Below, piece after piece: positions 10,049 to 51,867 of a DNA stretch of 64,000 bases (position 1 is the first letter of the stretch; each line of letters begins with the position of its first letter). Source of the stretch: Acidobacteriota bacterium (GTDB lineage: Bacteria > Acidobacteriota > Thermoanaerobaculia > Multivoradales > JAGPDF01); assembly GCA_012521815.1 (NCBI GenBank), contig JAAYLR010000141.1, forward strand, positions 414-64,413, written 5' to 3'. The notes beneath the pieces were generated by a model. That model was not told the DNA's origin. It ran no database searches and was given only the letters and a program-made list of their open reading frames with translations. The position numbers were made by a program, and so were the translations under genes.

Positions 10049-11056
10049 ATGACGAGCGCACGGCGCCGGCTCGGCGCGAGCGACCTCGAGATCAGCCCGC
10101 TCGGGCTCGGCACCTGGGCGATCGGCGGCCCCTGGCTCTTCGGCTGGGGTGAGCAGGAGGATGCCGACTCGATCGCCGCCATCCGGCGGGCGGTCGCATC
10201 CGGCATCAACTGGATCGACACCGCGCCGGCCTACGGCCTCGGCCACGCCGAGACGGTGATCGCGCGGGCGCTCGCCGGCCTGCCGGCGGCCGAGCGGCCG
10301 TACCTCTTCACGAAGTGCTCGCTCCTCTGGGACGACGCCGGCGCGATCTCCCACTCGCTCGCCGCCGCCTCGCTGCGGCGGGAGTGCGAGGCGAGCCTCC
10401 GCCGGCTCGGCGTCGAGGCGATCGACCTCTACCAGATCCACTGGCCGCACCACCCCGATGGCGACGGCACCGAGGGTCCGATCGAGGAGGCCTGGGAGAC
10501 GCTCGCGGCGCTGCGCGCCGAGGGGAAGGTGCGCTGGATCGGGGTCTCGAACTTCGACGCCGGCCAGCTCGACCGGATCTCCCGGATCGCCCCGGTGACC
10601 AGCCTCCAGCCCCCGTACTCGATGGTGCGGCGGAAGATCGAGAAGGAGATCCTCCCCTGGTGCGCCGCGCACGGCGTGGGGGTGCTCGCCTACTCGCCGA
10701 TGGCCGCCGGGCTGCTGACCGGCGCGATGACGCGGGAGCGGGTCGCCCGCCTGAGCGCCGACGACTGGCGGAAGCGGACGAACCCGGAGCTGCGCGAACC
10801 GCGCCTGTCGGCGAACCTCGAGCTGGTCGCGAGCCTCGCCGGGATCGGCGCCCGCCACGGCCGCGGCCCGGGGGAGGTGGCGATCGCCTGGACGCTCGCC
10901 AACCCGGCGGTGACCGCGGCGATCGTCGGCGCCCGCAACGCCACCCAGGTGGACGGCTTCGCGGGGGCGCTCACCTTCCGCCTCGACGCCGCCGAGCTCG
11001 CCGAGATCGACGTCGCGCTCGCCCGGCGCACGGCACGGATCGCCGCCGCGGGCTGA
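10049..11056 (+). CDS. aldo/keto reductase
   Basis: 335 aa; LGLGTWAIGG...IDTAPAYG...IDLYQIHWP...GVSNF; GGGAG RBS. Confidence 0.9.
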   Translation: MTSARRRLGASDLEISPLGLGTWAIGGPWLFGWGEQEDADSIAAIRRAVASGINWIDTAPAYGLGHAETVIARALAGLPAAERPYLFTKCSLLWDDAGAISHSLAAASLRRECEASLRRLGVEAIDLYQIHWPHHPDGDGTEGPIEEAWETLAALRAEGKVRWIGVSNFDAGQLDRISRIAPVTSLQPPYSMVRRKIEKEILPWCAAHGVGVLAYSPMAAGLLTGAMTRERVARLSADDWRKRTNPELREPRLSANLELVASLAGIGARHGRGPGEVAIAWTLANPAVTAAIVGARNATQVDGFAGALTFRLDAAELAEIDVALARRTARIAAAG

Positions 11057-11097
11057 GCCGTCCGCGCGGCCGCGAACGCCCCGTGTCCCGGACCGCC

Positions 11098-11865
11098 ATG
11101 CCCCGCTTCGAGCGGTACGTCGCCCTCGGTGACAGCTCCACCGAAGGCCTCGACGATCCGGACGGCCGGGGCGGCTACCGGGGCTGGGCCGACCGGTTCG
11201 CCGCCCGGGTGGCGGTCGCGCAGGGCGGCCTCCTCTACGCCAACCTCGCGGTGCGGGGCAAGCACGCCCGCCAGGTGCGCGAGGAGCAGCTCGCCGCGGC
11301 GCTCGCGCTCCGGCCCGATCTCGCGACGCTCTTCGCGGGCACGAACGACGCGGTCTCCCGCCGTTTCGACCTCGACGCCGTCATCGCCGACCTCGATGCG
11401 ATGCAGCGGGCGCTCGTCGCGAGCGGCGCCACCGTGCTCACGCTCACCCTCCCCGATCCGGGGCGGGTGCTGCCGTGGTTCCGCGGCTTCTCCCGGCGAG
11501 TCGCGGTCCTCAACGCCGCGGTCCGCAGGCTCGCGGCGGCGAACGGGGTGCTCGTCGCCGACCTCGCCGCCTGGCCGGATGCCTCCGATCCCCGTCTCTG
11601 GAGCGAAGACCGGCTGCACGCCAACAGCGCCGGTCACGAGCGGATCGCCGCCGCTCTCGCCCGTGCCCTCCGGCTGCCGGACACCGACGACGCCTGGCGC
11701 GCGCCGCTGCCGGCCACGCCGCCGGTCGGGCGCGTGCGGCGTCTCGGCGCCGATCTCCTCTGGGCCTACCGCTTCCTCTTTCCCTGGCTCTGGCGCCATG
11801 CCCGCGGGCGCTCTTCCGGCGACGGCCGGCGGCCCAAGCGGCCGGCGCTCCTGCCGGTGTGCTGA
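11098..11865 (+). CDS. SGNH/GDSL-family hydrolase
   Basis: MPRFERYVALGDSSTEG (GDS block I), FAGTNDA (block III) and DRLHANSAGHERIA (block V with D..H). Start placed at the internal ATG of the track ORF 10315..11865, which overlaps the AKR gene upstream. Confidence 0.8.
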   Translation: MPRFERYVALGDSSTEGLDDPDGRGGYRGWADRFAARVAVAQGGLLYANLAVRGKHARQVREEQLAAALALRPDLATLFAGTNDAVSRRFDLDAVIADLDAMQRALVASGATVLTLTLPDPGRVLPWFRGFSRRVAVLNAAVRRLAAANGVLVADLAAWPDASDPRLWSEDRLHANSAGHERIAAALARALRLPDTDDAWRAPLPATPPVGRVRRLGADLLWAYRFLFPWLWRHARGRSSGDGRRPKRPALLPVC

Positions 11866-11919
11866 CCGGCCCGGGTCACCACCTCGTGCCGGACGACGGC
11901 GAGCCGTCGCGGGGTCGGC

Positions 11920-12336
11920 TCAGCCGCGCTTCCTCGTCACCGCCCGCTTCCGCGCGGGGGGCGCGGCCGCCGACGCGGCGGGGGCGTGCCGCTCCTCCTC
12001 CAGGCGGAAGAGGATCCGGCCGCAGCGCTCGCACGTCTCGAGATCGCTCTGGCGGCTCGCCATCGCCGTCGGACGCACCGTGAAGCAGCCGAGACAGGTG
12101 CCACCGAGCGAGGGGACGACCGCCCGCGGATGGCGCTGCCGTATCCGCTCGTAGAGGCGCAGGACCCTGGCGTCGATCCGCGCCGCCGCCTCGGCCCGGG
12201 CCTCGCTCAGGCGCGTCGACTCCCCGAGCGGGAAGCCGAGCGCCGCCTCGCGCTCGCGCATCGCGGCCTCGCCGAGGTCGGCGAGCAGGGCGTCGAGCTC
12301 CTGCAGGACGAGGAGTTCCTGGATCTGTGGGTTCAT
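11920..12336 (-). CDS. zinc-ribbon protein (coiled-coil + C4 zinc ribbon, COG1579-like)
   Basis: 138 aa; coiled-coil N-terminal part then CLGCFTV...(16)...CERCGRIL (CxxC...CxxC). The ATG overlaps the stop of the upstream EIIA gene (ATGA). The long track ORF 11920..13512 is an upstream shadow extension. Confidence 0.7.
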   Translation of the reverse strand: MNPQIQELLVLQELDALLADLGEAAMREREAALGFPLGESTRLSEARAEAAARIDARVLRLYERIRQRHPRAVVPSLGGTCLGCFTVRPTAMASRQSDLETCERCGRILFRLEEERHAPAASAAAPPARKRAVTRKRG

Positions 12337-12833
12337 CGCGCGAGCGCCTCCTGGATGCGGGGCCGGATCAGCTGCCGCGCGAGCTTCTCCAGATCGTCGA
12401 AGCTCTCGACGGCGAGCAGCCGTTCGCGGTCGGTGTCGTGGTGCACCGCCGCCACCAGCACCCCGAGCAGCGGCAGATACCCCTCGCCGCCCACGCCGTA
12501 CGGCGCCACGACGAGGAAGACGCGCTCGACCGGGTGACCATCGACGGCCTGGAAGTCGAGGCCGCGGGCGAGCCGGGCGACGACGAGCGTCGTCCGCTGC
12601 GCGACCATCGAGCGGGCGTGCGGGATCGCGATCCCATGTCCGAGGCCGGTGGTGCCGAGCGCCTCGCGCTCGACGAGCAGGCGCTGGAAAGCGTTGCGGT
12701 CGTGGATCGCTCCCGCCGCGCCGAGGGCGTCGGCGAGCGCGGCGAAGAGCTCCTCCTGGCTGGAGACTTCGAGCGCGGGCAGGAAGAGGCCCGCCTCGAT
12801 CCGGATGGATGTGGCGATGTCGATCGGCTTCAC
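12333..12833 (-). CDS. PTS EIIA type-2 protein (PtsN / EIIA-Ntr-like)
   Basis: 166 aa. Phospho-His region GLGHGIAIPHAR in an EIIA(Fru/Mtl/Ntr) fold pattern. GTG start with GGGAGG SD, 18 nt downstream of the hycFG-like stop. Confidence 0.8.
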   Translation of the reverse strand: MKPIDIATSIRIEAGLFLPALEVSSQEELFAALADALGAAGAIHDRNAFQRLLVEREALGTTGLGHGIAIPHARSMVAQRTTLVVARLARGLDFQAVDGHPVERVFLVVAPYGVGGEGYLPLLGVLVAAVHHDTDRERLLAVESFDDLEKLARQLIRPRIQEALAR

Positions 12834-12851
12834 GATACCTCCCGGCTGAGA

Positions 12852-13631
12852 CTAACGGCTCTCGCCCGCGGATTCCAGACGCCCGAGGAGCCGCAGCATC
12901 CCGTCGAGCATGGTGAGGGGATGCGGCGGACAGCCCGGCACCCAGAGATCGACCGGCACCACCGCGCCGGCGCCGCCGGCGACCTCGGGGTGCCCCAGAT
13001 ACGGTCCCCCGGCGATCGCGCAGGCGCCGATGGCGATCACGATCTTCGGCGGCGCCACCGCGTCGTACGTCTTGCGCAGCGCGAGGCGCATGTTCTCGCT
13101 CACCGGCCCGGTCACGATCAGGCCGTCGGCGTGGCGCGGCGAGGCGACGATCCGGATGCCGAAGCGGCCGATGTCCCAGGCCAGCGTGGAGAGGACGTTG
13201 ACGTCCGCCTCGCAGGCGTTGCAGCCGCCGGCGCTCACCTGCCGGAGCTTGAGCGAGCGGCCGAAGAGGCGGCGGAGCCGTTCGTCGAGCGCGGTGGCGA
13301 GCGCGAGCTCCCGCTCGGCGCTCACCTGCAGCTCCTCGCGCCGGCGCACCGCGAGCCGGTGATCGCCGCCCCAGGTGATCGCGCCCTCCGGGCAGGCGGC
13401 GGCGCACTCCGCGCAGAAGAGGCAGCGGCCGAGATCGATCGCGATCGCGGGCGAGAGCGAGATCGCCTCCGTGGGGCAGACCTCCACGCAGTCGCGGCAA
13501 CCGTCGCGGCACCGCTCGGGCGCGAGCAGCGGACGGCCGCGGAAGCGGTCCGGCAGCGGCGGCGGCGGCCCGTCGGGGTAGGCGAAGGTCCGGTGCCCCT
13601 GATGGAGTCGCGCGCGCAGCAGTCTGATCAT
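12852..13631 (-). CDS. fused 2x[4Fe-4S] ferredoxin (HycF/NuoI-like) + hydrogenase/complex-I small subunit (HycG/NuoB-like)
   Basis: N-terminus has CRDGCRDCVEVCP and CLFCAECAAACP (two CxxCxxCxxxCP motifs). C-terminal part has SAGGCNACE, IGACAIAGGPY and VPGCPPHP, matching HycG/NuoB cluster-binding motifs. Confidence 0.85.
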   Translation of the reverse strand: MIRLLRARLHQGHRTFAYPDGPPPPLPDRFRGRPLLAPERCRDGCRDCVEVCPTEAISLSPAIAIDLGRCLFCAECAAACPEGAITWGGDHRLAVRRREELQVSAERELALATALDERLRRLFGRSLKLRQVSAGGCNACEADVNVLSTLAWDIGRFGIRIVASPRHADGLIVTGPVSENMRLALRKTYDAVAPPKIVIAIGACAIAGGPYLGHPEVAGGAGAVVPVDLWVPGCPPHPLTMLDGMLRLLGRLESAGESR

Positions 13632-13653
13632 CGGTGGCGGTTCTCCCCGGCGC

Positions 13654-15168
13654 TCAGAGGTCGTGTCCGCAGTAGGACAGGTTGAAGCTCTTGTTGCAGA
13701 GCGGGAAATCGGAGATCTGCCCGCCGCGCAGCGCCCGGGCGAGCCCGCTCCAGTTGTGGAACGACGGGTCGACGATCTTGTAGCGCGCGAAGCGCCCCGC
13801 GCGATCGGTGAGGGCGACGTGGCAGATCTCGCCGCGCCACCCCTCGACGAGCGACACCGCGAGGCTCTCGGGCGCGAGCCGCCCCACTGGCACCCGCACC
13901 TCCCCCTCCGGAAGCGCCGCGAGCGTGGCGTGGAGGAAGGCGAGCGAGTGCTCCATCTCGAGCCAGCGGACCCGGGCGCGGGCGTGGACGTCGCCGGAAG
14001 CCGCCGTGGCCACCGCCATCGACTGGTCGCGGTACGCCCCGCCGGGGTGATCGCGACGCAGGTCCCGGTCGACCCCCGAGGCGCGCGCCGCCGGCCCCAC
14101 CAGGCCGAGCGCGAGGGCGTCCTCCCGCGGCACCACGCCGGTCGTCTCGAACCGCTCCATGACCGACGAGCTCTCCCAGAGCAGCTCGATGGCGGAGCGG
14201 GCGTCGGTGAAGGTGCGGTCGAGGCCGGCCCGCAGGCGCTCGCGCCGCGCCGGCTCGAGGTCGAAGCCGCTGCCCCCCGGGCGGACGAGGCCGCGTCCGA
14301 AGCGCGAGCCGCAGAGCTCGGCCGAGAGGTTCAGGAAATCGCCCCTGATCCGCCCGCAGAAGGAGGCGGTCGGCAGGTAGCCGACGTCGCCGGCGAGCGC
14401 GCCGAGGTCGCCGGTGTGGTTCGCCAGCCGCTCGAGCTCGAGCGCGATCGCGCGCAGCGCCGCTCCCCGCGGCGGTGCCGCGGTGCCGGCGAGCGCCTCG
14501 ATCAGCTCGCAGCCCGCCGTCGCGTGGCCGATCGTCGTGTCGCCGGCGGAGGTCTCCAGGTAATGGATCGTGCGCCGGTCGGGCCCCCCGATGAGCGCCC
14601 GCTCCACCCCCCGGTGCTGGTAGCCGAGCCGGATCTCGAGGTGGAAGACCTGCTCGCCGTGGCACTGGAACCGGAAATGCCCGGGCTCGATCACCCCGGC
14701 GTGCACCGGCCCGACCCCGACCTCGTGGACCTCCTGCCCCTCGACCCGGTAGAGCTCGCCGGTACCGGGCAGCGCGGGGGCCGGCGCGCCCGCCGCGGGT
14801 GCGACCAGCGGTGGCTGCGAACGCACCGGCGCCGGCGCCGGATGCCCCTCCGCGACGAGCCCGAACTGCTCGGCGAGCTCGCGTTCGAAGAGGTGGAGCT
14901 GCGGACACGCGGCGGCTCGGGAGGGGAACGCCGGGCCGGTGAGCGTCGCCCGGGCAAGCGCGATCCCGGCGCGCGCGTCGTCGGCGAGCACCGCCACGAG
15001 CTCGACCCCCGAGGGGCGCGGCACCCCGAACCAGGCGGCCACCCGCAGCCCGCCGTCGCACGCCGTGACGACGGCGTCGGCCAGCTCGGCCACCGGCAGC
15101 GCCGGAATCTCCCGCCGCGCCACCGCGACCCCCGCCGTGGTCCGCAGGAAGCGGTCGGCGCCGCTCAT
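13654..15168 (-). CDS. NuoC-NuoD-fusion / HycE-like large subunit, apparently lacking NiFe-binding cysteines
   Basis: 504 aa. NuoC-like N-terminal domain, then GPVHAGVIEPGHFRF...LGYQHRGVE (NuoD/large-subunit signature). Where L1 (RxCGxCxxxH) is expected it reads SAGDTTIGH. The C-terminus ends FPLCNKSFNLSYCGHDL rather than DPCxxCxxR. ATGA coupling to the upstream gene; GGAGGGGG SD. Confidence 0.85.
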   Translation of the reverse strand: MSGADRFLRTTAGVAVARREIPALPVAELADAVVTACDGGLRVAAWFGVPRPSGVELVAVLADDARAGIALARATLTGPAFPSRAAACPQLHLFERELAEQFGLVAEGHPAPAPVRSQPPLVAPAAGAPAPALPGTGELYRVEGQEVHEVGVGPVHAGVIEPGHFRFQCHGEQVFHLEIRLGYQHRGVERALIGGPDRRTIHYLETSAGDTTIGHATAGCELIEALAGTAAPPRGAALRAIALELERLANHTGDLGALAGDVGYLPTASFCGRIRGDFLNLSAELCGSRFGRGLVRPGGSGFDLEPARRERLRAGLDRTFTDARSAIELLWESSSVMERFETTGVVPREDALALGLVGPAARASGVDRDLRRDHPGGAYRDQSMAVATAASGDVHARARVRWLEMEHSLAFLHATLAALPEGEVRVPVGRLAPESLAVSLVEGWRGEICHVALTDRAGRFARYKIVDPSFHNWSGLARALRGGQISDFPLCNKSFNLSYCGHDL

Positions 15169-16598
15169 CGTCCCCCTCCGAGCGCCGCCGCAGCCTCGGT
15201 CAGCAGCCCGCGCAGCGACGCCGGCAGATGGAGGCCGAGCAGGAGCACGAGCGCGACGAGCAGGAGCGGCGGCAGGTAGCCGCGCGCCCGGTCGCGGTAC
15301 GCCGACTGCCGGGCGTAGGCCGTCGGCCGTCCCTGGAGAGCGGCGAAGGTGGTCGTCCCCATCCCGGCGAAGACGAGCAGCAGGAGGGCGACGAAGAGGG
15401 CGGCCAGCCAGCCGCGCCCGGCGGCCAGCGCCACCTGCACGATCAGCAGCTTGCTCACGAAGAGGCCGAACGGGGGCGAGCCGGTGATCGCGAAGAGGCC
15501 GAAGAGGAAGACCGTGCCCGAATACGGCAGGCGCCGCAGCGCACCGCGGATCTCGCCGGTCGTCTTGCCGCCGAACGCCCGGTGGAGGTTCCCGGCCGCG
15601 AGGAAGAGCCCGGCCTTGCCGAAGGCGTTGAGCACGAGGTGCAGGAGCGCGGCGAAGGTGGCGGCGGCGCCGAGGCCGGCGGCGAGCGCGAGGATCCCCA
15701 TCTGCTCGACGCTCGAGTAGGCGAGCATCCGCTTCAGATCCCGCTGCCCGAGCAGCAGCGCGCCGGCCACCGCCATCGAAAGGAGGCCGATGGCGATGAG
15801 CAGGCGGTTCGCGTAGATCCCCTCGCCCGCCGCCGCGGTGAGCTGGGTGAAGCGCAGCAGGGCGAGGAAGGCGCAGCTCGTCAACCCCCCGGCGAGCACC
15901 GCGCCCACCACGCCGGGCGCCTCGCCGTAGGCGTCCGGCTTCCAGGTATGCATCGGCGCGAGCCCCATCTTCGTGCCGTAGCCGACGAGCAGCAGCGCGA
16001 AGCCGGTGCGCAGCCAGGGACGCGAGAGCTCGCCGGCGCGGGCGAGCAGGTCGGGGAAGAGGAGCGACGCCTCGCCGCCGCCGAGCAGCGCCGCGTAGCC
16101 GACGAAGAACGACCCGAGCAGCGCCAGCGCGATCCCCACCGAGGAGATCAGCAGGTACTTCCAGGTGGCCTCGATCGATCGCGCCGAGCGGTTGAAGTAG
16201 ACGAGCGGCGCCGAGGCGAGCGTCGTCGCCTCGATCCCCACCCAGAGCAGGCCGAGATGCTGCGCGTACGCCACCAGGCTCATCGCGCCGAGGACGGCGA
16301 GCATGCAGGCGGTGAAGCGGCGATTCTCCCGCTCGGGGCGCTGCTCCAGATAGCCGACCGCGTAGACGGCGCAGACGAGGAAGAGCACGCTCACGAGCAG
16401 CAGCAGGAGCCGCCCGGGGGCGTCGAGCCGGAGCCAGTCGCCGCCGCTCCCCGCGGGGGCGCGCAGCGCGAGCCCGACGAGGAGGAGGTGGATGGCCGCG
16501 CCGAGCGCGAGCAGCCGCGGCCGCCAGAGCCGGGAGGGCGTCAGGTAGACGGCGACCGCCAGGGCCAACGGCACGACGACGGGCAGCGGCAGGAGCAC
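15165..16598 (-). CDS. NuoM/NuoN-like proton-pumping membrane subunit (HyfF-like)
   Basis: 477 aa, polytopic; conserved antiporter-like block LGLAPMHTWKPDAYGEAP and others; GTG start 2 nt after the upstream stop. Confidence 0.85.
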   Translation of the reverse strand: MLLPLPVVVPLALAVAVYLTPSRLWRPRLLALGAAIHLLLVGLALRAPAGSGGDWLRLDAPGRLLLLLVSVLFLVCAVYAVGYLEQRPERENRRFTACMLAVLGAMSLVAYAQHLGLLWVGIEATTLASAPLVYFNRSARSIEATWKYLLISSVGIALALLGSFFVGYAALLGGGEASLLFPDLLARAGELSRPWLRTGFALLLVGYGTKMGLAPMHTWKPDAYGEAPGVVGAVLAGGLTSCAFLALLRFTQLTAAAGEGIYANRLLIAIGLLSMAVAGALLLGQRDLKRMLAYSSVEQMGILALAAGLGAAATFAALLHLVLNAFGKAGLFLAAGNLHRAFGGKTTGEIRGALRRLPYSGTVFLFGLFAITGSPPFGLFVSKLLIVQVALAAGRGWLAALFVALLLLVFAGMGTTTFAALQGRPTAYARQSAYRDRARGYLPPLLLVALVLLLGLHLPASLRGLLTEAAAALGGGR

Positions 16599-16600
16599 GG

Positions 16601-17242
16601 CTACTCCCGCAGCTGCGAGAGCCGCCGCGTGTCGAGCGAGGCGAACTCCCGGTTGATGTGGTGGATGATGATGCTGAGCACGAAGATGCCGACGAAGAGG
16701 TCGAGGAGCACCCCGGCCTCGACGAGGAACGGCATCGCCTCGACGAGCAGCAGGCCGAAGGCGAAGATCCCGTTCTCCAGCACGAGGTAGCCGACCACCT
16801 GGGTGATCGCCTTGCGCCGGGTGACGAGCAGGAGGAGCCCGGCGGCGACGGTGGCGAGCGCGGCCGGCACGAGCAGCGGCGCGAGCCGCTCCTCGGCGAA
16901 CGGGAGCCGCCCCGCCGCCGCCACCGCGAGCGCGGTGGTGAGGGCGCCGAGGACGAGCGACGGGAGCAGGCCGAGCAGCGGCTCGACCTCGCGCCGGATC
17001 GCCACCTGCCGGAGCGCCCGGAAGAGCATCGCCGGGATCAGCCAGGCCTTGAGCACCACGCTCGCGAGGGCGAGTACCAGCACCCGGTTGCTCGCCTCCC
17101 CGTGGGCGACGATCGCGATCACCCCGAGCAGCAGCCCCTGGAGGGCGACCGCCCGCACCATCGAGCCGATCCGGCCGGCGCCAAGCGCCACGAGGTTCAC
17201 GAGCAGGAGGCCGGCGACGAGGATCTCGAGCAGCGATTGCAT
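16601..17242 (-). CDS. HyfE-like small membrane subunit (NuoK-related)
   Basis: 213 aa hydrophobic protein with HyfE-like length and topology; 4-nt gap to the upstream gene. Confidence 0.75.
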   Translation of the reverse strand: MQSLLEILVAGLLLVNLVALGAGRIGSMVRAVALQGLLLGVIAIVAHGEASNRVLVLALASVVLKAWLIPAMLFRALRQVAIRREVEPLLGLLPSLVLGALTTALAVAAAGRLPFAEERLAPLLVPAALATVAAGLLLLVTRRKAITQVVGYLVLENGIFAFGLLLVEAMPFLVEAGVLLDLFVGIFVLSIIIHHINREFASLDTRRLSQLRE

Positions 17243-17246
17243 CCGG

Positions 17247-18194
17247 TCACCTTCCGAGCAGCAGCAGCGCGAAGCCGCAGCTGAGCACCGCGGCGACGAG
17301 CAGCGCCGGCACCCGCAGCAGCCGCAGCCGCGCCATGGTCGACTCCACGACGCCGATCAGCACCGCGACGGCGAGCACGCCGAGGACGAAGAAGCCGAGG
17401 CCGAGCCACCCCCGGACGGTGGCCGCCGGCACGAGGATGTGCATCAGGAGCACGTCGAGCACCAGCAGCTTGACCGCCGCGCCGTACTCCACGAGGCCGA
17501 AGAGCGGGCCGCTGTGGTCGAGGACCATGACCTCGTGGATCATCGTCAGCTCGAGGTGGGTCGCCGGGTCGTCGACCGGGATCCGGGCGCACTCGGCGAG
17601 CAGGACGATCAGCACCCCGGCGGCGACGAGCGCGAGCGCCACGGTGCTGTCGCGCCAGAGCTCCCCTTCCGGCGCCCGCAGCATGTCCTCGAGCTGCAGC
17701 GAGCCGGAGAGGCGCGCGAGAGCGAAGAAGGCGAAGAAGAGCGCCGGCTCGGTGAGCCAGGCGAAGCCGACCTCCCGGGCCGCCCCCATCCCCTCGAACG
17801 GCGAGCCGGTGTCGAGCGCCGCCGCGGCGGTGAAGAAGCGGCCGAGCGCGAGCAGGTAGGCGAAGAGCACGAAGTCGCCGGCGAAGGAGATCGGCGCGTC
17901 GAACGGCCCGAGCGGCACCACCAGCCCCGCCATCACCGCGGTGACGACCGCGAGTACCGGCGCGAGGGCGAAGACGCCGGTCGTCGTCGCGCTCAGCGCG
18001 AGCTCCTTGCGCGCGAGCTTGGCGAGATCGCGGTACGGCTGGACGAGGCTCGGGCCGCGCCGCCCCGCGAAGCGCGACTTCGTCCGCTGGATCACCCCGA
18101 GCAGGAGCGGCGGCAGCAGGAGGAGGACCCCGAGGTGGACCAGGATCTGGCTCAGCGCCACGGCGGACCTCCGGCGGCGTGGCTCACGAGCCAC
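17247..18194 (-). CDS. NuoH-like membrane subunit (HycD/HyfC-like)
   Basis: Aligns by eye to E. coli HycD (…RVARARLHNRRGPGVLQEYRDIIKLLGRQ vs …QRTKSRFAGRRGPSLVQPYRDLAKLARKE; ...LDTGSPF...). The true start is probably a few codons inside (near VALSQIL); the first ~11 Arg-rich residues are doubtful. Confidence 0.8.
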   Translation of the reverse strand: MAREPRRRRSAVALSQILVHLGVLLLLPPLLLGVIQRTKSRFAGRRGPSLVQPYRDLAKLARKELALSATTTGVFALAPVLAVVTAVMAGLVVPLGPFDAPISFAGDFVLFAYLLALGRFFTAAAALDTGSPFEGMGAAREVGFAWLTEPALFFAFFALARLSGSLQLEDMLRAPEGELWRDSTVALALVAAGVLIVLLAECARIPVDDPATHLELTMIHEVMVLDHSGPLFGLVEYGAAVKLLVLDVLLMHILVPAATVRGWLGLGFFVLGVLAVAVLIGVVESTMARLRLLRVPALLVAAVLSCGFALLLLGR

Positions 18195-20223
18195 CGAGCC
18201 TTTCCACGGGCCACCACGGCTGCAGGCTCACGAGCAGCAGGATCACGAGCGCGATCACGACGTAGAGGAGGTACTGCTGGAGGCTCCCCTGGTGGTAGCG
18301 GCGCAGCCGCTCGCTCAGCCGCACGAGCCACCGCACCCCGGGGCGCAGGAGCCGCTCGAGCACGCTGTCGGCGATCTCGGAGTGGAAGCTGCTCGCCTCC
18401 GGGAACGGCCCCTCGATCCGCGGCCAGCGGAAGCGGGGGGCGAGCACCCAGCCGAAGCGCGAGGTGATCAGCTCGGCGAACGACGAGGCCGTGTACTGCA
18501 GCCGCGGCGAGGCGCCGGCGAAACCGCAGTCCCAGGTCGGCAGCTCCGGCTGGCGTTCCCGGGCCCGGCGGCAGAGCGGGGCGAGCCGCAGCGAGATCAG
18601 GGCGGTGAGGAGGATCAGGAGGGCGGCGACGACCGCGAGCCGGCCGAGCGGCAGGAACCGCCCCCAGCCGAGGAGCGCCCCCGTGTCCTCCGCCCAGGCG
18701 GCGATCCCGCGATCGACCGCCGGCGCGAAGAGGCCGGGGGCGATACCGATCGCCACGCAGGCCGCGGCGAGGAGCGCCATCGGCCGGAGCATCGGCGCCG
18801 GTGCCTCCTTCGCCGCCGCGGCGGCCTCCGAGCGCGGGGTGCCGAGGAAGACGATGCCGTAGACCTTCACGAAGCAGGCGACCGCGAGCGCTCCGGTGGC
18901 CGCCAGCGCCGCCGCCGGCAGCGCGGCCCAGGCCGGGCCGGGGCCGAGCGCCGCCCGGGCGAGCCCGAGGAAGATCGCCAGCTCGCTCACGAAGCCGTTG
19001 AGCGGCGGCAGCGCACAGATCGCCACCGCGCCGACGAGGAAGAGCCCGGCGGTGGCCGGCATCCGCTTCGCGAGCCCCCCCTGGAGGTCGATCTCCCGGC
19101 TGCCGGTGGCGTGGAGGACCGAGCCCGCGCCGAAGAAGAGGAGCGACTTGAAGAGCGCGTGGTTCCAGACGTGGAGCAGGCAGCCGGCCATTCCGAGCAC
19201 CACCCAGTCGGCGCGGCCGGTGGCGCGCCCGGCCATCGCGAGCCCGAGGCCGAGGAGGATGATCCCGATGTTCTCGATGCTGTGGTAGGCGAGCAGCTTC
19301 TTCAGATCGTGCTGCGCGAGGGCGAAGACGACACCGAAGAACGCCGAGAGCCCGCCGGCGGCGAGCAGGACGACGCCCCAGGAGAGCGGCGGCGCCGCCA
19401 CCAGCCCGAGGGTCCGCACGAGCCCGTAGATCCCCATCTTGAGGACGACCCCCGACATCAGCGCCGAGACGTGGCTCGGGGCGCTCGCGTGGGCGTCGGG
19501 GAGCCACGAGTGGAGGGGCATCACCCCCGCCTTGATCCCGAAGCCGACGAGCGCGAGCGCGAAGAGCGCGGTGAGCGCCTTCGGCGCGGCGGTGGCCGGG
19601 ATCGCACCGAACGCGAAGCCGCCGCCGAGCTGCGCCTGGAGGGCGAAGAGCGCGACGAGGCAGAGCAGCGCCGCGTGGCTGTACAGCAGATAGGTCCAGC
19701 CGGCGGCGCGCACCTCGGCCCGCGCCTCCTCGGTGACCACGAGGAAGTAGGTCGCGAGCGCCATCGTCTCCCACGCGATCAGGAACGAGAAGCCGTCGCG
19801 GGCGGCGAGCAGCAGCAGGAGGCTCGCGAGCGCGAGGCCGTAGCTGAACTGGAGCCGCCGGCCGTGACGCGGGTGGCGGCGGGGATCCCAGTAGGTGCGG
19901 CCGTAGACCGCCCCGAGGCCGCCGACGAACAGGACCGGCAGCGCGAAGAAGCCGCTGAGGGCGTCGCCCCCGAGCTGCCCTTCGCCGAGGAAGAGCCCCG
20001 GCAGCCGCAGCGCGGCGGGTGCGGAGGCGGCGAGCAGCGCCACCGCGCCGGCGATCCCCACCGCGCAGCCGGCGAGCGTGAGCCGCACCGTCCAGCGCGA
20101 GCCCGACAGCGAGCGCCGCGGCAGGAGCAGCGCCGGCACCCCGCTGAGCGTGAGCACGAAGGCGGCGCCGAGCAGGAGCAGGAGCCCCGCGCGGGCGGCG
20201 AGGGGGCCTTCGAAGCCGCTCAT
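18184..20223 (-). CDS. NuoL-like antiporter-type membrane subunit (HyfB/HycC-like)
   Basis: 679 aa from MSGFEGPLAARAGLLLLL; conserved blocks WLPDAHASAPSHVSALMSGVVLKMGIYG and HALFKSLLF. ATG at 20223 overlaps the stop of the 31-aa HTH ORF (ATGA). The track ORF starts 69 codons earlier in non-coding-looking sequence. Confidence 0.85.
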   Translation of the reverse strand: MSGFEGPLAARAGLLLLLGAAFVLTLSGVPALLLPRRSLSGSRWTVRLTLAGCAVGIAGAVALLAASAPAALRLPGLFLGEGQLGGDALSGFFALPVLFVGGLGAVYGRTYWDPRRHPRHGRRLQFSYGLALASLLLLLAARDGFSFLIAWETMALATYFLVVTEEARAEVRAAGWTYLLYSHAALLCLVALFALQAQLGGGFAFGAIPATAAPKALTALFALALVGFGIKAGVMPLHSWLPDAHASAPSHVSALMSGVVLKMGIYGLVRTLGLVAAPPLSWGVVLLAAGGLSAFFGVVFALAQHDLKKLLAYHSIENIGIILLGLGLAMAGRATGRADWVVLGMAGCLLHVWNHALFKSLLFFGAGSVLHATGSREIDLQGGLAKRMPATAGLFLVGAVAICALPPLNGFVSELAIFLGLARAALGPGPAWAALPAAALAATGALAVACFVKVYGIVFLGTPRSEAAAAAKEAPAPMLRPMALLAAACVAIGIAPGLFAPAVDRGIAAWAEDTGALLGWGRFLPLGRLAVVAALLILLTALISLRLAPLCRRARERQPELPTWDCGFAGASPRLQYTASSFAELITSRFGWVLAPRFRWPRIEGPFPEASSFHSEIADSVLERLLRPGVRWLVRLSERLRRYHQGSLQQYLLYVVIALVILLLVSLQPWWPVERLGGS

Positions 20224-20315
20224 GCCTCGCTCACCACGCGCTGCTCGATCCAGCGATAGATCGTCTTCTCGGAGACGTCCAGCAGGCGGGCGGCATCCCT
20301 GACGAGGAGCTTCAT
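20220..20315 (-). CDS. 31-aa mini helix-turn-helix ORF (excisionase/MerR-type HTH_17-like), translationally coupled to the complex operon
   Basis: MKLLVRDAARLLDVSEKTIYRWIEQRVVSEA: a canonical 'LL.vs..T.YRwi..' HTH with the usual C-terminal wing missing. Its stop overlaps the next ATG (ATGA). Absent from the track because it is under 60 aa. No strong SD. Confidence 0.35.
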   Translation of the reverse strand: MKLLVRDAARLLDVSEKTIYRWIEQRVVSEA

Positions 20316-20350
20316 GGAGCAGATGTCGCCCCAGGGGGACGACAATGGAC

Positions 20351-20379
20351 AATCTATCCCGCTCCCACTCCCACTTCAA
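20351..20379 (-). promoter_or_regulatory. candidate sigma70-type promoter for the mini-HTH / complex operon
   Basis: On the minus strand: TTGAAG (20379-20374), a 17-nt spacer, TAGATT (20356-20351), about 40 nt upstream of the HTH ATG. An AATCAtTGATT inverted repeat lies about 50 nt further upstream (20432-20442). Confidence 0.3.
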
Positions 20380-20517
20380 CGGATGACAGGCAATGGCGAA
20401 AGCGGACCTCGCCCCGTCCAATCCGATCAAATCATTGATTCAAAGGAGTTTTCTCGCTCGTCGGCGCGCCCGGCACGCGACGGGAGGACGCTCACCCTCA
20501 CCCCTCCGCAAATCGCC

Positions 20518-20575
20518 TGGCACCTTCCGCCGGCAAATCCGGCAAATCGGCTGGCACCTTTCGGGCACCTTTCGG
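20518..20575. repeat. structured tandem direct-repeat array in the 290-bp intergenic region upstream of the operon
   Basis: GGCACCTTCCG (20519-20529), CCGGCAAAT x2 (20530-20547), GGCACCTTTCG x2 perfect tandem (20553-20574). Likely regulator binding sites. Confidence 0.5.
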
Positions 20576-20607
20576 AAAGGGACGGGAGGGGCTGGCGGGA
20601 GCCGGAG

Positions 20608-21051
20608 CTACCGGAGCGGGGAGACGAAGACGGTGAGCCCCTCGACCCGTTCGACGCGCACCCGGGCGCCGGCCGGAAGGGGGCGGGAGGTGGTGAGGCG
20701 GGCGTTCCACGACTCGCCGGCGAGCTCGACCCGGCCGAGCCGGCCGGGGGCGAGCGCTTCGAGCGTCACCCCTTCGCTCCCCACCAGCGGGTCGACCTTC
20801 CTCCGGGCGACGGCCGCCGCGGCCGCCCGGCCCTTTCCGCGGTGCCTCGTGAGCACCAGCGCCAACCCCACCGCGAAGAGGAGGGCGAAGAGCGCCCCCG
20901 GCGCCCACCCCGGCAGGCCGGGCACCGCGAAACGGACGAGGCCGGTGAGCAGCGCCGCGCCGCCGCCGAGCAGCAGGAGCACCCGCCAGCGCCGGTGGAA
21001 AGCGCCGAGGAGCAGGAGGAGTCCGAGGATCAGCCAGTACCAGTGAGACAT
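20608..21051 (-). CDS. NfeD-like membrane protein (short form, C-terminal OB-fold)
   Basis: 147 aa. Two N-terminal TM helices, then a beta-rich C-terminus (GRLGRVELAGESWNARL...VRVERVEGLTVFVSP) typical of NfeD. No SPFH/stomatin partner in the window. Confidence 0.65.
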   Translation of the reverse strand: MSHWYWLILGLLLLLGAFHRRWRVLLLLGGGAALLTGLVRFAVPGLPGWAPGALFALLFAVGLALVLTRHRGKGRAAAAAVARRKVDPLVGSEGVTLEALAPGRLGRVELAGESWNARLTTSRPLPAGARVRVERVEGLTVFVSPLR

Positions 21052-21135
21052 GGAGCGCTCCGGAGGGAAAGTCGGTGTCGCGCGGATGCTACACCGCCTC
21101 CGGAGGGGCTTCCGCGACCGCCGCCGCGGCCGGGA

Positions 21136-22971
21136 TCAGCCGTGCTCGGCGAGCAGCCGCAGCACCCGCTCGCCGTACCGCTCGAGCTTCTTCGCCCCGA
21201 TCCCCGGCACCTCGGCGAGCTGCGCGAGAGTGGCCGGCACGCGGAGCGCGATCTCGCGCAGCGTCCGGTCGTGGAAGACGAGGTACGGCGGCACCCCGGC
21301 CGCCGCCGCGAGCTCCTTGCGCAGGGCGCGGAGCGCCTCGTACCGCGCCGCGTCCGGGAGGAGCTCGGCGGCCGGGGGCGCCGTCGCCACCTTCCGCCGC
21401 CGGCCCTCGGGACGCCGGAGCACCCGCAGCGCGAGCCGCTCCTGCCCCCGGAGCACCGGCCAGGCGCGCGGGGCGAGGCGCAGCACGCCGAAGCCGTCGG
21501 TCTCGATCTCGAGGTAGCCACGCGCCACGAGCTGGCGGAAGACGGTCCGCCACTCCTTCGCGTCGAGCTCGCCGCCGACCCCGAAGGTCGGCAGCCGGTC
21601 GTGCCCGTGACGCTGGATCTTCTCGGTCGCCTCGCCGCGCAGCAGGTCGACGAGATGCATCGCCCCGAACCGCTCGCCGGTCCGGTAGACCGCCGAGAGC
21701 GCCTTCTGCGCCGGCACCGTGGCGTCCCAGGTGGCGGTCGGCTGGAGGCAGTTGTCGCAGTTGCCGCAGGGCTCCGGGAGCTCCTCGCCGAAGTAGCGCA
21801 GCAGCACCCGCCGCCGGCACTCGGTGGTCTCGCCGTAGCCGACGACCGCGTCGAGCTTCCGGCGCTCGATCTGCTTCCGCTCCGCCTCGGCGCCACCGGC
21901 GTCGATGAGCCGCCGCAGGTTCACGACGTCCTGCAGCCCCCAAACCATCCAGGCGTCGGCGGGCTCGCCGTCGCGCCCGGCGCGGCCGGTCTCCTGGTGG
22001 TACGCCTCGAGGCTCCGCGGCAGGTCGAGGTGGGCGACGAAGCGGACGTCCGGCCGGTCGATCCCCATCCCGAAGGCGATCGTCGCCACGACCACCACGC
22101 CGTCGTCGGAGCGGAACCGGTCGAGCACCGCCCGGCGCGCCTCCGGCTCCATCCCGGCATGGTAGGCGAGCGCCGGCACCCCGTGGGCGGTGAGCCAGTC
22201 GGCGGTCTGCTCGACCTTCGCGCGGGAGAAGCGGTAGACGATCCCGCAATGACCGGCGTGCTCCGACGCGAGGAAGGCGAGGAGCTGCCGGCCGGGGTCG
22301 CCCAGCTTGTCGACCACGCGGTAGCGGAGGTTCGGCCGGTCGAAGCTCGCGAGGAAGAGCCGGGCCCCGTCGAGCCCGAGCCGGGCGACGATCTCGCGCC
22401 GGGTCGGCGGGTCGGCGGTGGCGGTCAACGCGAGCCGCGGCACCCCGGGGAAGCGTTCGGCGAGCACGGAGAGGCCGAGGTACTCGGGGCGGAAATCGTG
22501 CCCCCACTGGGAGACGCAGTGCGCCTCGTCGATCGCGATCAGCGCGAGCGGCACGCCGTCGAGCAGCGCGAGGAACCGCTCGGTCAGCAGCCGCTCCGGC
22601 GCCACGTAGAGCAGGTCGAGCTCGCCGCGCCGGAGCCGGCGCTCGACCCCGACGAGCTCGCCGGGGGGGAGGTTCGAGTGGCAGGCGGCGGCGGCGACCC
22701 CGAGCTCGGCGAGCGCCGCCACCTGATCCTGCATGAGCGCGATGAGCGGCGAGACGACGACCCCGGTGCCCGACCGTACGAGCGCGGGCAGCTGGTAGCA
22801 GAGCGACTTGCCGCCGCCGGTCGGCCAGACCACGAAGGCGTCGCGCCCCGCGAGGAGCGCGGCCACGACCTCCTCCTGCCCGGCGCGGAAGCCGGGGAAG
22901 CCGAAGACCTCGGCGAGGGTCGCGCGGGCGCGTTCGAGGGTGGGCGGATCGCATTCCACGGGGGTGAGCAT
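21136..22971 (-). CDS. recQ: ATP-dependent DNA helicase RecQ
   Basis: FGFPGFRAGQEEVV...WPTGGGKSLCYQLPAL...DEAHCVSQWGHDFRPEY; zinc-binding CGNCDNC; RQC and HRDC-like C-terminus. Start taken at MLTPVE (22971). Confidence 0.9.
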   Translation of the reverse strand: MLTPVECDPPTLERARATLAEVFGFPGFRAGQEEVVAALLAGRDAFVVWPTGGGKSLCYQLPALVRSGTGVVVSPLIALMQDQVAALAELGVAAAACHSNLPPGELVGVERRLRRGELDLLYVAPERLLTERFLALLDGVPLALIAIDEAHCVSQWGHDFRPEYLGLSVLAERFPGVPRLALTATADPPTRREIVARLGLDGARLFLASFDRPNLRYRVVDKLGDPGRQLLAFLASEHAGHCGIVYRFSRAKVEQTADWLTAHGVPALAYHAGMEPEARRAVLDRFRSDDGVVVVATIAFGMGIDRPDVRFVAHLDLPRSLEAYHQETGRAGRDGEPADAWMVWGLQDVVNLRRLIDAGGAEAERKQIERRKLDAVVGYGETTECRRRVLLRYFGEELPEPCGNCDNCLQPTATWDATVPAQKALSAVYRTGERFGAMHLVDLLRGEATEKIQRHGHDRLPTFGVGGELDAKEWRTVFRQLVARGYLEIETDGFGVLRLAPRAWPVLRGQERLALRVLRRPEGRRRKVATAPPAAELLPDAARYEALRALRKELAAAAGVPPYLVFHDRTLREIALRVPATLAQLAEVPGIGAKKLERYGERVLRLLAEHG

Positions 22972-49351: not shown

Positions 49352-49487
49352 GGGCCGGACGATACCGCACCGGGACGGGGCGGAACGGGCCGACCCGGGG
49401 TGCGAAAGATGCCGCTTCCCGCATCCGGGGCTTGGATGTAGACTCCGGGGAGCCATCTGCCGGAAGGGCCGCAAGGGAAGGAGTGCC

Positions 49488-50624: not shown

Positions 50625-50627
50625 GCC

Positions 50628-51833: not shown

Positions 51834-51867
51834 CAGCGCCCTGTTCCCCACCCCGGCCACCGCCGCG

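Follow-up and report, generated by a model that had tools for sequence, protein, structure and literature searches.

The 64,000-nt stretch of DNA analysed here (positions 414 to 64,413 of contig JAAYLR010000141.1, assembly GCA_012521815.1, from an Acidobacteriota bacterium; hereafter the window) encodes on its minus strand what, judged from its sequence, is a canonical six-subunit Ehr (Ech-hydrogenase-related) complex, ehrA-B-C-D-L-S, and thus a member of a known, functionally unsolved class. Ehr complexes are group-4-related complexes that lack NiFe ligands and have no known function (PMC6349859, PMC10284858, bioRxiv 10.1101/765248). The predicted products comprise NuoL-, NuoH-, HyfE- and NuoN-like membrane subunits together with a large and a small subunit, and the large subunit is devoid of NiFe-coordinating residues, in line with the published definition of the class (PMC6349859, PMC10284858). 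Taking all evidence together, we favour with moderate confidence an explanation in which the complex is fed by ferredoxin, translocates ions and has lost its NiFe site, and in which the regulator gene typical of the family was deleted in this organism.

At a GC content of 74% for the 64-kb window, long open reading frames (ORFs) arise in all six frames, and gene frames were chosen by third-position GC content (GC3) and homology. The nine consecutive minus-strand genes running from 20315 down to 11920 have GC3 values of 0.93–0.99, which in a genome of this composition marks their frames as true coding sequence rather than spurious high-GC ORFs. Indeed, all nine tightly packed ORFs proposed in a first-pass annotation, which had been made from the letters of the sequence, are present, with junctions ranging from an 11-nt overlap to a 22-nt gap and ATGA-type 4-nt overlaps at three of them. 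In the order of transcription, the genes are:

20220–20315, minus strand: 31-codon helix-turn-helix (HTH) ORF, remnant of an HTH_17–EIIA(Ntr) regulator gene, with a stop codon that overlaps the start codon of ehrA (ATGA)
18184–20223, minus strand: EhrA, NuoL/HyfB/HycC-like antiporter-type subunit, 679 aa (NCBIfam, PDB phmmer)
17247–18194, minus strand: EhrB, NuoH/HycD-like subunit, 315 aa (Pfam NADHdh)
16601–17242, minus strand: EhrC, HyfE-like (NuoK-related) subunit, 213 aa (NCBIfam HyfE)
15165–16598, minus strand: EhrD, HyfF/NuoN-like antiporter-type subunit, 477 aa (NCBIfam, Pfam)
13654–15168, minus strand: EhrL, large subunit resembling NuoC-NuoD/HycE and lacking NiFe ligands, 504 aa, C-terminus ...NKSFNLSYCGHDL
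12852–13631, minus strand: EhrS, fused HycF/NuoI-like and HycG/NuoB-like small subunit, 259 aa (Pfam Fer4_7 and Oxidored_q6)
12333–12833, minus strand: stand-alone EIIA protein (PTS_EIIA_2, Ntr/Fru type), 166 aa (Pfam, 1.2e-22)
11920–12336, minus strand: zinc-ribbon protein, relative of the C-terminal part of CdsZ/CT398 (DUF164), 138 aa (NCBIfam, 2e-8)

An independent metagenome contig (L090) is 97.5% identical to the window across 11 kb and has the same gene order, including the 31-codon ORF; as it stems from another sample, the arrangement is not an assembly artefact. A strict terminator scan of positions 11000–21200 returned only two terminator-like sites, both intragenic and at the rate expected from shuffled sequence, and gave no evidence for a terminator between ehrS and the EIIA gene or between any other of the genes. 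An Rfam scan of the whole window yielded no match.

The Ehr assignment turns on whether the large subunit retains the L1 and L2 NiFe motifs, and the alignments showed neither to be intact. EhrL matches Pfam Complex1_49kDa and, weakly, the 30-kDa family in its N-terminal part, and its best sequence match in the PDB is E. coli HycE (7z0s_E, 1.2e-36, phmmer). The same protein is the best Foldseek match (TM 0.89/0.85, root-mean-square deviation 2.9 Å, 27% identity) of an AlphaFold2 model of EhrL built with 56 homologues (pLDDT 93, pTM 0.93), with E. coli NuoCD ranking second. At the L1 motif (RxCGxCxxxH), RVCGICGFAH of HycE aligns with TSAGDTTIGH of EhrL, and at the L2 motif ((D)PCxxCxx[HR]), DPCYSCTDR aligns with NLSYCGHDL followed by the stop codon. 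All four ligands are thereby replaced, by A208 and T211 in the first motif and by S498 and G501 in the second, which bears out the cysteine loss noted at first pass. The replacement is common to all 81 aligned EhrL sequences (that of the window and those of the 80 loci introduced below) and to the wider family.

An exhaustive search of 50%-identity cluster representatives for EhrL relatives also recovered four proteins that retain the NiFe cysteines, namely P0226 (ERVCGACSFSH ... NKSFNLCYSCTDR), P0233, P0243 and P0252. These share with EhrL the scaffold GPVHAGIIEPGHFRF (GPVHAG[IV]IEPGHFRF) and DFPLxNKSFxL, which secures the register of the four ligand positions, and their NLCYSCTDR stands opposite the terminal NLSYCGHDL of EhrL. 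As EhrL terminates at the position of the hydrogenase processing site, it has no cleavable extension. At the level of sequence, a NiFe hydrogenase is therefore excluded. EhrL's final 20 residues, ISDFPLCNKSFNLSYCGHDL, show virtually no variation across the 81 sequences, in which C491 and C500 are likewise invariant and D210 is kept in ~90% or more. In the wider family, the Ehr-specific changes are Asp210 of a 'GD' motif, S498, G501 and the terminal Leu, with most Ehr-type representatives having the 'GD' Asp and the NiFe-type relatives lacking it.

Profile searches of Pfam, NCBIfam and the PDB upheld the subunit assignments made at first pass (NuoL-, NuoH-, HyfE- and NuoN-like membrane subunits, a NuoCD/HycE-like large subunit and a fused HycF–HycG small subunit), with Pfam/NCBIfam E-values of 1e-21 to 1e-169 for five of the six; the exception is NuoH-like EhrB, for which Pfam NADHdh gives 1.1e-34 and NCBIfam reaches just 2e-11. 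EhrA matches NCBIfam hydrogenase-4 subunit B at 2.6e-169, without reaching the equivalog cut-off, and Pfam Proton_antipo_M, and aligns with HycC (7z0s_C) across residues 46–597 (1.9e-64, PDB phmmer). EhrC is covered in full length by the NCBIfam hydrogenase-4 membrane subunit HyfE (3.3e-21), with a weak Pfam Oxidored_q2 match in its C-terminal half, and EhrD by NCBIfam hydrogenase-4 subunit F (2.6e-88) and Pfam Proton_antipo_M (1.3e-45). None of the subunits attains an NCBIfam equivalog cut-off, as would fit a family that NCBI has not modelled. The ehrB gene call on L090 takes a later start, resulting in 304 rather than 315 aa.

Residue conservation, assessed in alignments of 59–74 homologues, suggests a working machine. 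In EhrA, E152, K231, K262, K359 and E414 are kept in at least 90% of 59 homologues, and E123, K210 and K328 are conserved in EhrD. We take these positions, assigned to the Glu of transmembrane helix (TM) 5, the Lys of TM7, TM8 and TM11 and the Glu of TM12 by alignment with HycC/MbhH and from what is known of complex I, to be the charged residues that define working antiporter-like subunits. EhrB has conserved acidic residues, including E134, E141, E149, E201, D208, D209, E215 and E221. EhrS, whose best PDB matches by phmmer are MbhJ (3e-30), HycG (1.2e-28) and HycF (1.1e-12), contains 12 cysteines (C41/45/48/52, C70/73/76/80 and C137/140/204/234), all of them kept in at least 90% of 74 homologues. 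These form two 4Fe-4S motifs in the HycF/NuoI-like domain and the proximal 4Fe-4S motif in the HycG/NuoB-like domain, the latter cysteines (C137, C140, C204 and C234) aligning with those of MbhJ and HycG. The first ferredoxin-type motif (residues 41–52) has the unusual spacing CxxxCxxCxxxC rather than CxxCxxCxxxC, and this spacing is kept in the 74 homologues.

At least 552 of the 600 candidate stretches listed for the EhrL query encode a relative. In the best 80 loci, which were retained for comparison, EhrL is 56–66% identical to the window protein and the order ehrA-B-C-D-L-S is conserved. About a dozen phyla are represented, with hosts from Thermoanaerobaculia (the closest relatives), Myxococcota, Planctomycetota, Verrucomicrobiota/Kiritimatiellia, Lentisphaerota, Spirochaetota, Elusimicrobiota, Chloroflexota, Zixibacteria, Latescibacterota, Methylomirabilales, Fibrobacter and Geobacter/Pelobacter-type Desulfuromonadales. 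Conservation of the operon across phyla at this level of identity points to strong purifying selection which, acting on the Fe-S cysteines, the pump residues and the end of EhrL, rules out a decaying operon and argues for an electron-transferring, ion-translocating machine.

A second NuoL-like ehrA gene was present in 21 of the 80 genome loci; operons of this form include those of L004, L005, L013, L014, L017 and L174. The two L174 copies are 80% identical to each other and ~60–63% identical to the window EhrA, indicating a recent, lineage-specific tandem duplication, so that deletion of a second copy was rejected as the origin of the single ehrA in the window. The seven-subunit form of Ehr may have arisen more than once. 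A Pelobacteraceae metagenome-assembled genome (MAG) contains an extra NuoB/HycG-like ORF (L077:4309–4815, 168 aa, with a CNAC motif) just upstream of an Ehr operon.

Scanned against Pfam, 40 of the ~49 ORFs predicted in the window yielded no hyp, hycI, fdh or nuoEFG gene, in keeping with an absence that the first-pass annotation had pointed out, and the operon itself has no poly-ferredoxin connector subunit of the HycB/HyfA type. The genes around it encode RecQ, NfeD, a GDSL lipase, an aldo/keto reductase, a pyridoxal-phosphate-dependent enzyme of Cys/Met metabolism and other unrelated proteins. To search for partners more widely, all ORFs within 5 kb of the operon were clustered across the 80 loci. 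These flanks yielded neither a conserved redox partner nor a cluster of Fdh or NuoEF genes; the only large clusters were the regulator gene described below and its antisense shadow ORFs, and smaller ones comprised sigma-54 activators (9 loci) and a zinc ribbon (5 loci). The missing input module is hence real, yet not unusual in itself: Ech, Mbh and MBS accept electrons straight from ferredoxin at the HycF/NuoI-like domain, which is intact here. A lack of linked partners is what would be expected if the donor were a soluble ferredoxin docking there.

Formate dehydrogenase or quinone partners of Ehr have so far been a matter of speculation in the literature (PMC6349859, PMC10284858, bioRxiv 10.1101/765248), with an FDH–Ehr complex being proposed for Margulisbacteria and Saganbacteria (PMC6349859). 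In Geobacter sulfurreducens, the Ehr subunits (GSU0739–45) are expressed, vary with the electron donor and are most abundant on formate (PMC7894505). With the NiFe ligands gone and neither maturation nor electron-input genes nearby, the initial reading of the operon as a member of the Ehr class is supported and agrees with these reports (PMC6349859, PMC10284858, PMC7894505).

Across the 80 loci, a single neighbour of the operon is widely conserved, a ~230-aa gene immediately upstream of ehrA whose product combines an excisionase/BldC-type HTH (TIGR01764, 1e-13; NF033787 in one member) with an EIIA domain of the phosphotransferase system (PTS) and is referred to below as HTH-EIIA. The closest solved homologues of its EIIA domain are the PtsN structures 3urr and 1a6j, and the histidine of the GIAIPH motif is conserved. 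The gene lies directly upstream in 48 of the 55 loci with a determinable upstream region; those without it are Geobacter-type (the Desulfuromonadales-type L032, L068 and L077), Kiritimatiellae and two planctomycete loci. Conversely, in a set of 80 metagenome loci fetched with the HTH-EIIA family, an EhrA-like gene came next in 58 of the 64 that could be judged. Among the six exceptions, two (L130 and L170) carry tandem HTH-EIIA duplicates followed by ehrA, and a third (L128) has tandem genes, too, on a contig that ends before any ehrA is visible.

In the window, only the 31-codon ORF is left of this gene. Its residues 1–25 are 96% identical to the N-terminus of the 231-aa HTH-EIIA protein of L003 and are followed by a six-codon tail, and alignment of the DNA with L002 and L003 revealed an in-frame loss of ~200 codons that removed the EIIA domain entirely and retained the ATGA overlap with the ehrA start. 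The ORF matches 22 residues of the 51-position Pfam model HTH_17 (1.7e-6) and is thus too short for a ~50-residue HTH domain. What was initially taken for a small 'mini-HTH' regulator is a stump left by this deletion. No other copy of the HTH-EIIA regulator is present in the window. We infer that the ORF was kept as a leader for translational coupling to ehrA, and the ehr operon is probably deregulated in this organism.

A gene for PTS enzyme I, which uses phosphoenolpyruvate (PEP), is divergent from HTH-EIIA/ehr in Thermoanaerobaculia-like loci (L174:36–1598, L002:2243–3712 and L092:53–1540); the window contains none, and the L174 gene table lists no permease gene. L174 represents the complete ancestral state, with divergent enzyme I, HTH-EIIA, two ehrA, ehrB–S, EIIA and zinc-ribbon genes. 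Ehr is hence repeatedly embedded in PTS-type regulatory components. In the literature searched, we found no description of a link between EIIA and Ehr, nor of a two-domain ~230-aa HTH-EIIA protein dedicated to a respiratory-type operon.

Upstream of the remnant, the following elements were read from the sequence, their function being putative:

20374–20379, minus strand: –35-like hexamer TTGAAG
20351–20356, minus strand: –10-like hexamer TAGATT, whose final base is also the opening base of the operator relic, an arrangement shared with relatives
20336–20351, minus strand: operator relic TGTCCATTGTCGTCCC, a degenerate TGTCCA-N4-TGTCCA direct repeat starting 36 nt upstream of the ATG

The same layout of –35, N17, –10 and operator occurs in L003, L042, L067 and L174, and many loci feature TTGACA-N17-(TAnnnT-like), at once followed by TGTCCA-N4-TGTCCA, upstream of the regulator gene. 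Allowing for up to two mismatches within 200 nt of the HTH-EIIA start (background ~0.01 per 200 nt of locus DNA), a tandem TGTCCA site was detected in 16 of 41 genome loci, nearly all 35–49 nt upstream, and in 22 of 76 loci of the independent metagenome set, 20 of them 37–59 nt upstream and one with three repeats. This amounts to a ~20- to 40-fold enrichment in two independent locus sets. BldC-type proteins bind head-to-tail to direct repeats, a mode that the 10-bp spacing of the TGTCCA repeats fits. The HTH-EIIA product probably binds these repeats and probably responds to PTS-type phosphorylation. The position of the site, abutting the –10 element, suggests autorepression which, if real, would leave the operon deregulated in this organism, where the regulator is deleted.

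The region between the ehr promoter and the next gene upstream also harbors two 22-nt direct repeats (20508–20563; GCAAATCG[C/G]CTGGCACCTT[C/T]CG), 34 nt apart, and between them a 9-nt tandem of two copies of CCGGCAAAT. A sigma-54 promoter for the ehr operon within these repeats (TGGCAC, plus strand) was considered and rejected, as its GG-to-GC spacing and orientation are unfit. The adjacent gene, located directly upstream of the promoter region and downstream of recQ, encodes an NfeD-like protein (20608–21051, minus strand). NfeD is usually accompanied by an SPFH/stomatin partner gene, which is not adjacent here.

On the other side of the operon, the EIIA gene (12333–12833) begins with a GTG 18 nt past the ehrS stop, preceded by GGGAGG. 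Its product scores 80.9 bits against PTS_EIIA_2 (gathering score 27) and has the phospho-acceptor His in GIAIPH, yet stays at 65.9 bits against a cut-off of 138.7 for the PtsN equivalog TIGR01419 and lacks the second conserved His (RAHLHLL region). Its closest homologues are stand-alone EIIA proteins of 165–166 aa, and it is ~34–43% identical to the EIIA domain of HTH-EIIA. The possibility that this EIIA replaces the deleted regulator domain was dismissed, since it is a distinct paralogue (identity in this range, no RAHLHLL) and coexists with the full-length regulator in L174.

The zinc-ribbon ORF (11920–12336) overlaps the EIIA stop by 4 nt and contains a CxxC...CxxC pattern. It aligns with NCBIfam Zn_ribbon_CdsZ at model positions 156–250 of 251 (34 bits against a cut-off of 275) and, below the gathering score, with Pfam CT398_CC (4.5e-4). 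The full-length CdsZ/CT398/HP0958 architecture of a coiled-coil hairpin plus a C4 ribbon is not present, and the partial match marks the protein as a short relative of only the C-terminal part of CdsZ. The order ehrS–EIIA–zinc ribbon is constant in the window clade (L081, L090, L091, L172, L174 and L175; EhrL 69–98% identical), a related zinc-ribbon gene directly follows ehrS in L002, L029, L052, L056 and L069 (three phyla), and pairs of EIIA and Zn_ribbon_9 genes occur far from Ehr operons in Eisenbacteria-like contigs (L085–L089). EIIA and zinc ribbon thus constitute an independent two-gene module that is also found away from Ehr. Of the regulatory-looking flanks to which the first-pass annotation had drawn attention, the downstream EIIA and zinc-ribbon genes are present, albeit as part of this module, and the upstream 'mini-HTH' is a remnant. 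A link of the pair to sigma-54, by way of CdsZ/HP0958-type proteins and PtsN, is conceivable, and is mentioned here as a lead only.

In the mechanism we propose, a low-potential donor, most likely reduced ferredoxin, would dock on the HycF/NuoI-like domain of EhrS, and electrons would run via the three clusters to a remodelled pocket at the EhrL/EhrS/EhrB interface, where an acceptor other than H+ would be reduced. The redox energy would be passed on to EhrB, EhrC, EhrD and EhrA and move H+ or Na+, with the reverse direction also possible. The gene content, the lost NiFe ligands, the conserved Fe-S and pump residues, the linkage of the regulator gene, the repeat motif and the deletion are read from sequence; which donor and acceptor serve, which way the reaction runs, and that the regulator binds DNA and is phosphorylated, are inferred. 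As to the acceptor, a membrane quinone is possible at best, a partner-delivered or other substrate slightly less probable and sulfane or disulfide sulfur doubtful, and we deem it improbable that there is no turnover at all and the complex acts as a redox-sensing antiporter. In most lineages, HTH-EIIA would act on the TGTCCA repeats abutting the –10 element in response to PTS-type phosphorylation; in the window lineage, the ~200-codon in-frame deletion would have left the 31-codon leader coupled to ehrA, and the downstream EIIA–zinc-ribbon pair retained.

Several points weigh against parts of this explanation. The ferredoxin donor is argued only by analogy with Ech, Mbh and MBS. DNA binding and phosphorylation of HTH-EIIA are predictions, the operator motif was found in only ~30–40% of loci, and beyond the window there could be another full-length gene for the regulator. 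The proposed promoter of the operon, TTGAAG-N17-TAGATT, matches just 8 of 12 consensus positions and lies below the threshold of a strict sigma-70 promoter scan of positions 11000–21200, which returned no promoter. Two further points, concerning C491/C500 and the quinone, are taken up with the alternatives to which they belong.

In sequence as in structure, every subunit has its best matches among Hyc, Hyf or Mbh proteins, as would be the case for a genuine H2-evolving [NiFe]-hydrogenase from group 4, belonging to the Hyf/formate-hydrogenlyase (FHL) type, with fdhF, hyp and hycI outside the window. We nevertheless regard this as extremely improbable, given that A208, T211, S498 and G501 take the ligand places in the 81 EhrL sequences and the wider family, that the cysteine-bearing relatives align unambiguously, that EhrL has no cleavable C-terminal extension and that no HycB/HyfA connector, hyp, hycI or fdh was found among the scanned window ORFs. 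A complex-I-like ferredoxin:menaquinone oxidoreductase, which would reduce quinone in a NuoD/NuoB/NuoH-type cavity as an 11-subunit-minus design akin to that of Fpo-like or NDH-1 complexes, is unlikely, though far from negligible; an interaction of Ehr with quinone was suggested by earlier authors cited in bioRxiv 10.1101/765248. E. coli NuoCD is the second-best structural match of EhrL, and Ehr has NuoH-, NuoB- and NuoD-like subunits. These three form the quinone chamber of complex I, and most host phyla (Acidobacteriota, Myxococcota and Planctomycetota) respire with menaquinone. In T. thermophilus Nqo4, His38 and Tyr87 are the quinone ligands of complex I. Their equivalents in EhrL (phmmer against 2fug_4) are Ile160 and Gly209, which speaks against quinone as the acceptor, and EhrL is closer to HycE than to NuoD in both sequence and fold. 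Moreover, the family extends to Spirochaetota, Elusimicrobiota and relatives, and quinone biosynthesis is reportedly missing from Ehr-bearing Riflemargulisbacteria (PMC6349859).

Reduction of polysulfide or disulfide by the proximal 4Fe-4S cluster together with Cys500 and Asp210, coupled to ion pumping as in an MBS-like reductase, is a rather doubtful possibility. The precedent is P. furiosus MBS/Mbx (6u8y), a NiFe-less group 4 relative that matches EhrL, EhrS and EhrA in PDB searches, and the invariance of C491 and C500, the near-constancy of D210 and the recurrence of the 'GD' Asp in most Ehr-type but not in the NiFe-type proteins would suit such chemistry. MbsL is a distant match (2.3e-17), though, and no sulfur-metabolism genes were detected among the scanned window ORFs or in the flanks of the 80 loci. 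Fixation of C491 and C500 is confined to this subfamily; more distant Ehr proteins have Ile, Val or Ser in place of the former and Ser or Ala in place of the latter, which weakens any general cysteine-based chemistry. Similarly hard to favour is a role of Ehr as the membrane module of an FDH–Ehr or other oxidoreductase–Ehr supercomplex that has its catalytic partner encoded at another place in the genome: the proposal made for Margulisbacteria/Saganbacteria (PMC6349859) and the peak of G. sulfurreducens Ehr on formate (PMC7894505) speak for it, and the absence of fdh and nuoEF among the scanned window ORFs, of any conserved in the flanks of the 80 loci and of a poly-ferredoxin connector in the operon against it. 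Finally, Ehr might be an Mrp-like cation/proton antiporter for K+, Na+ or pH homeostasis, without turnover, in which the Fe-S arm senses redox state under PTS-Ntr control. The Mrp-type antiporter-like subunits, the lack of the NiFe ligands that define the hydrogenase catalytic centre and the tight linkage to EIIA(Ntr)-type proteins would agree with this, as would the regulation of K+ transport by PtsN in E. coli. We consider it improbable, since the conservation of all 12 cluster cysteines, together with an EhrL pocket and C-terminus that are nearly invariant from phylum to phylum, is easier to reconcile with catalysis than with sensing, and since the HTH domain and operator motif point to transcriptional rather than allosteric control.

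A bolder version of the ferredoxin-fed Ehr that we favour, speculative and with odds well against it, is that Asp210, Cys500 and the free C-terminus (...SYCGHDL-COOH) may form a new non-NiFe catalytic centre in the place of the former NiFe site, beside the proximal cluster, under the control of a phospho-switch leading from enzyme I to HTH-EIIA on the TGTCCA repeats. If true, Ehr would be a very widely distributed ion pump that is driven by ferredoxin and serves an unrecognised acceptor, e.g. disulfide or sulfane sulfur, and the PTS phospho-switch would couple respiratory pumping to the cell's PEP/pyruvate or nitrogen status.

Ehr complexes stand at the evolutionary junction of group 4 hydrogenases and complex I and occur in many phyla with no known donor, acceptor or phenotype. 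The window locus, as a typical member from an uncultured Thermoanaerobaculia-like bacterium, leaves the question of their function unchanged; what it adds to a known class, usefully if modestly, is the link to the regulator gene, the repeat motif and the deletion that occurred in nature. The near-invariant C-terminus and pocket of EhrL offer a target for mutagenesis, and HTH-EIIA with its direct repeat, sometimes accompanied by enzyme I, at the head of most operons leads to a testable hypothesis on when cells switch Ehr on. The window lineage, being a natural regulator-deletion variant, would be useful for expression comparisons in metatranscriptomes.

Elsewhere in the window, the GC content dips to 0.67–0.71 (vs. 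~0.74) at 49300–52000, where two ORFs (49488–50624 and 50628–51833) have a first-position GC of ~0.63. This DNA, just upstream of a gene pair for a PAS histidine kinase and a sigma-54 activator (51868–54968), may be horizontally acquired. Three well-supported ORFs of 429, 530 and 252 aa (GC3 of at least 0.90; 1515–4387, minus strand, and 7993–8751, plus strand) had no Pfam match at E ≤1e-4. ARAGORN called an 89-nt tRNA-Arg(ACG) at 60356–60444 (plus strand), which lies within a high-GC3 ORF (59984–61594) and is probably a false positive.

Several known systems invite comparison. At the regulatory level, HTH-EIIA shares its EIIA domain, the GIAIPH histidine and the HTH with PtsN, EIIA(Mtl)-type PTS-controlled regulators and BldC-type HTH proteins. 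The name Ehr was reportedly given by Coppi in 2005 to the complex of G. sulfurreducens (GSU0739–0745). That complex has the same types of subunits, i.e. NuoL-like EhrA, HyfE-like EhrC, the large EhrL and the small EhrS (names from PMC7894505), and its 'EhrA-1' implies two NuoL-like subunits where the window has one. Loci from Geobacter/Pelobacteraceae MAGs (L032, L068, L076 and L077; not the GSU proteins themselves) have the same operon and C-terminal motif with 58–59% identity of EhrL; relative to Geobacter Ehr, the window adds the downstream EIIA and zinc ribbon.

Ehr has been placed next to group 4f (PMC10284858). The group 4f hydrogenases and NiFe-type relatives (cluster representatives P0226, P0233, P0243 and P0252) share GPVHAG[IV]IEPGHFRF and DFPLxNKSFxL-x-Y with EhrL, at just 32–36% identity to the window protein. 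They have ERxCGxCxxxH and LCYSCxDR where Ehr has E-x-x-[AS]-G-D-x-x-x-x-H and LSY[CSA]GxDL.

Among characterised complexes, E. coli Hyc/Hyf (7Z0S) provides the best PDB match for EhrL and EhrA, with HycF and HycG matching the two halves of EhrS, and the six Ehr subunits correspond to HyfB, C, E, F, G and H+I of E. coli hydrogenase-4. Compared with E. coli FHL (Hyc), Ehr is without the NiFe ligands, HycB/HyfA, FdhF, the C-terminal extension and HycI, has HycF and HycG fused, and possesses a HyfE-like subunit. MBS/Mbx and Mbh of P. furiosus (6U8Y and 6CFW) are significant PDB matches for EhrL, EhrS and EhrA; among solved relatives, Mbh ranks behind the E. coli FHL subunits and ahead of complex I and MBS. 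Both are ferredoxin-fed, ion-translocating group 4 relatives with no separate input module, and the chemistry of MBS is not H2 production. They have many more Mrp-type subunits than Ehr; MbhL keeps the NiFe site, and MbsL, as noted, is distant from EhrL. With complex I, finally, Ehr shares homologues of NuoB, C, D, H, I, K, L and N, and differs in lacking NuoEFG and separate NuoA and NuoJ genes and in having just two antiporter-like subunits, while the NuoB-type domain of EhrS carries the CxxC of hydrogenases instead of the CC motif of complex I.

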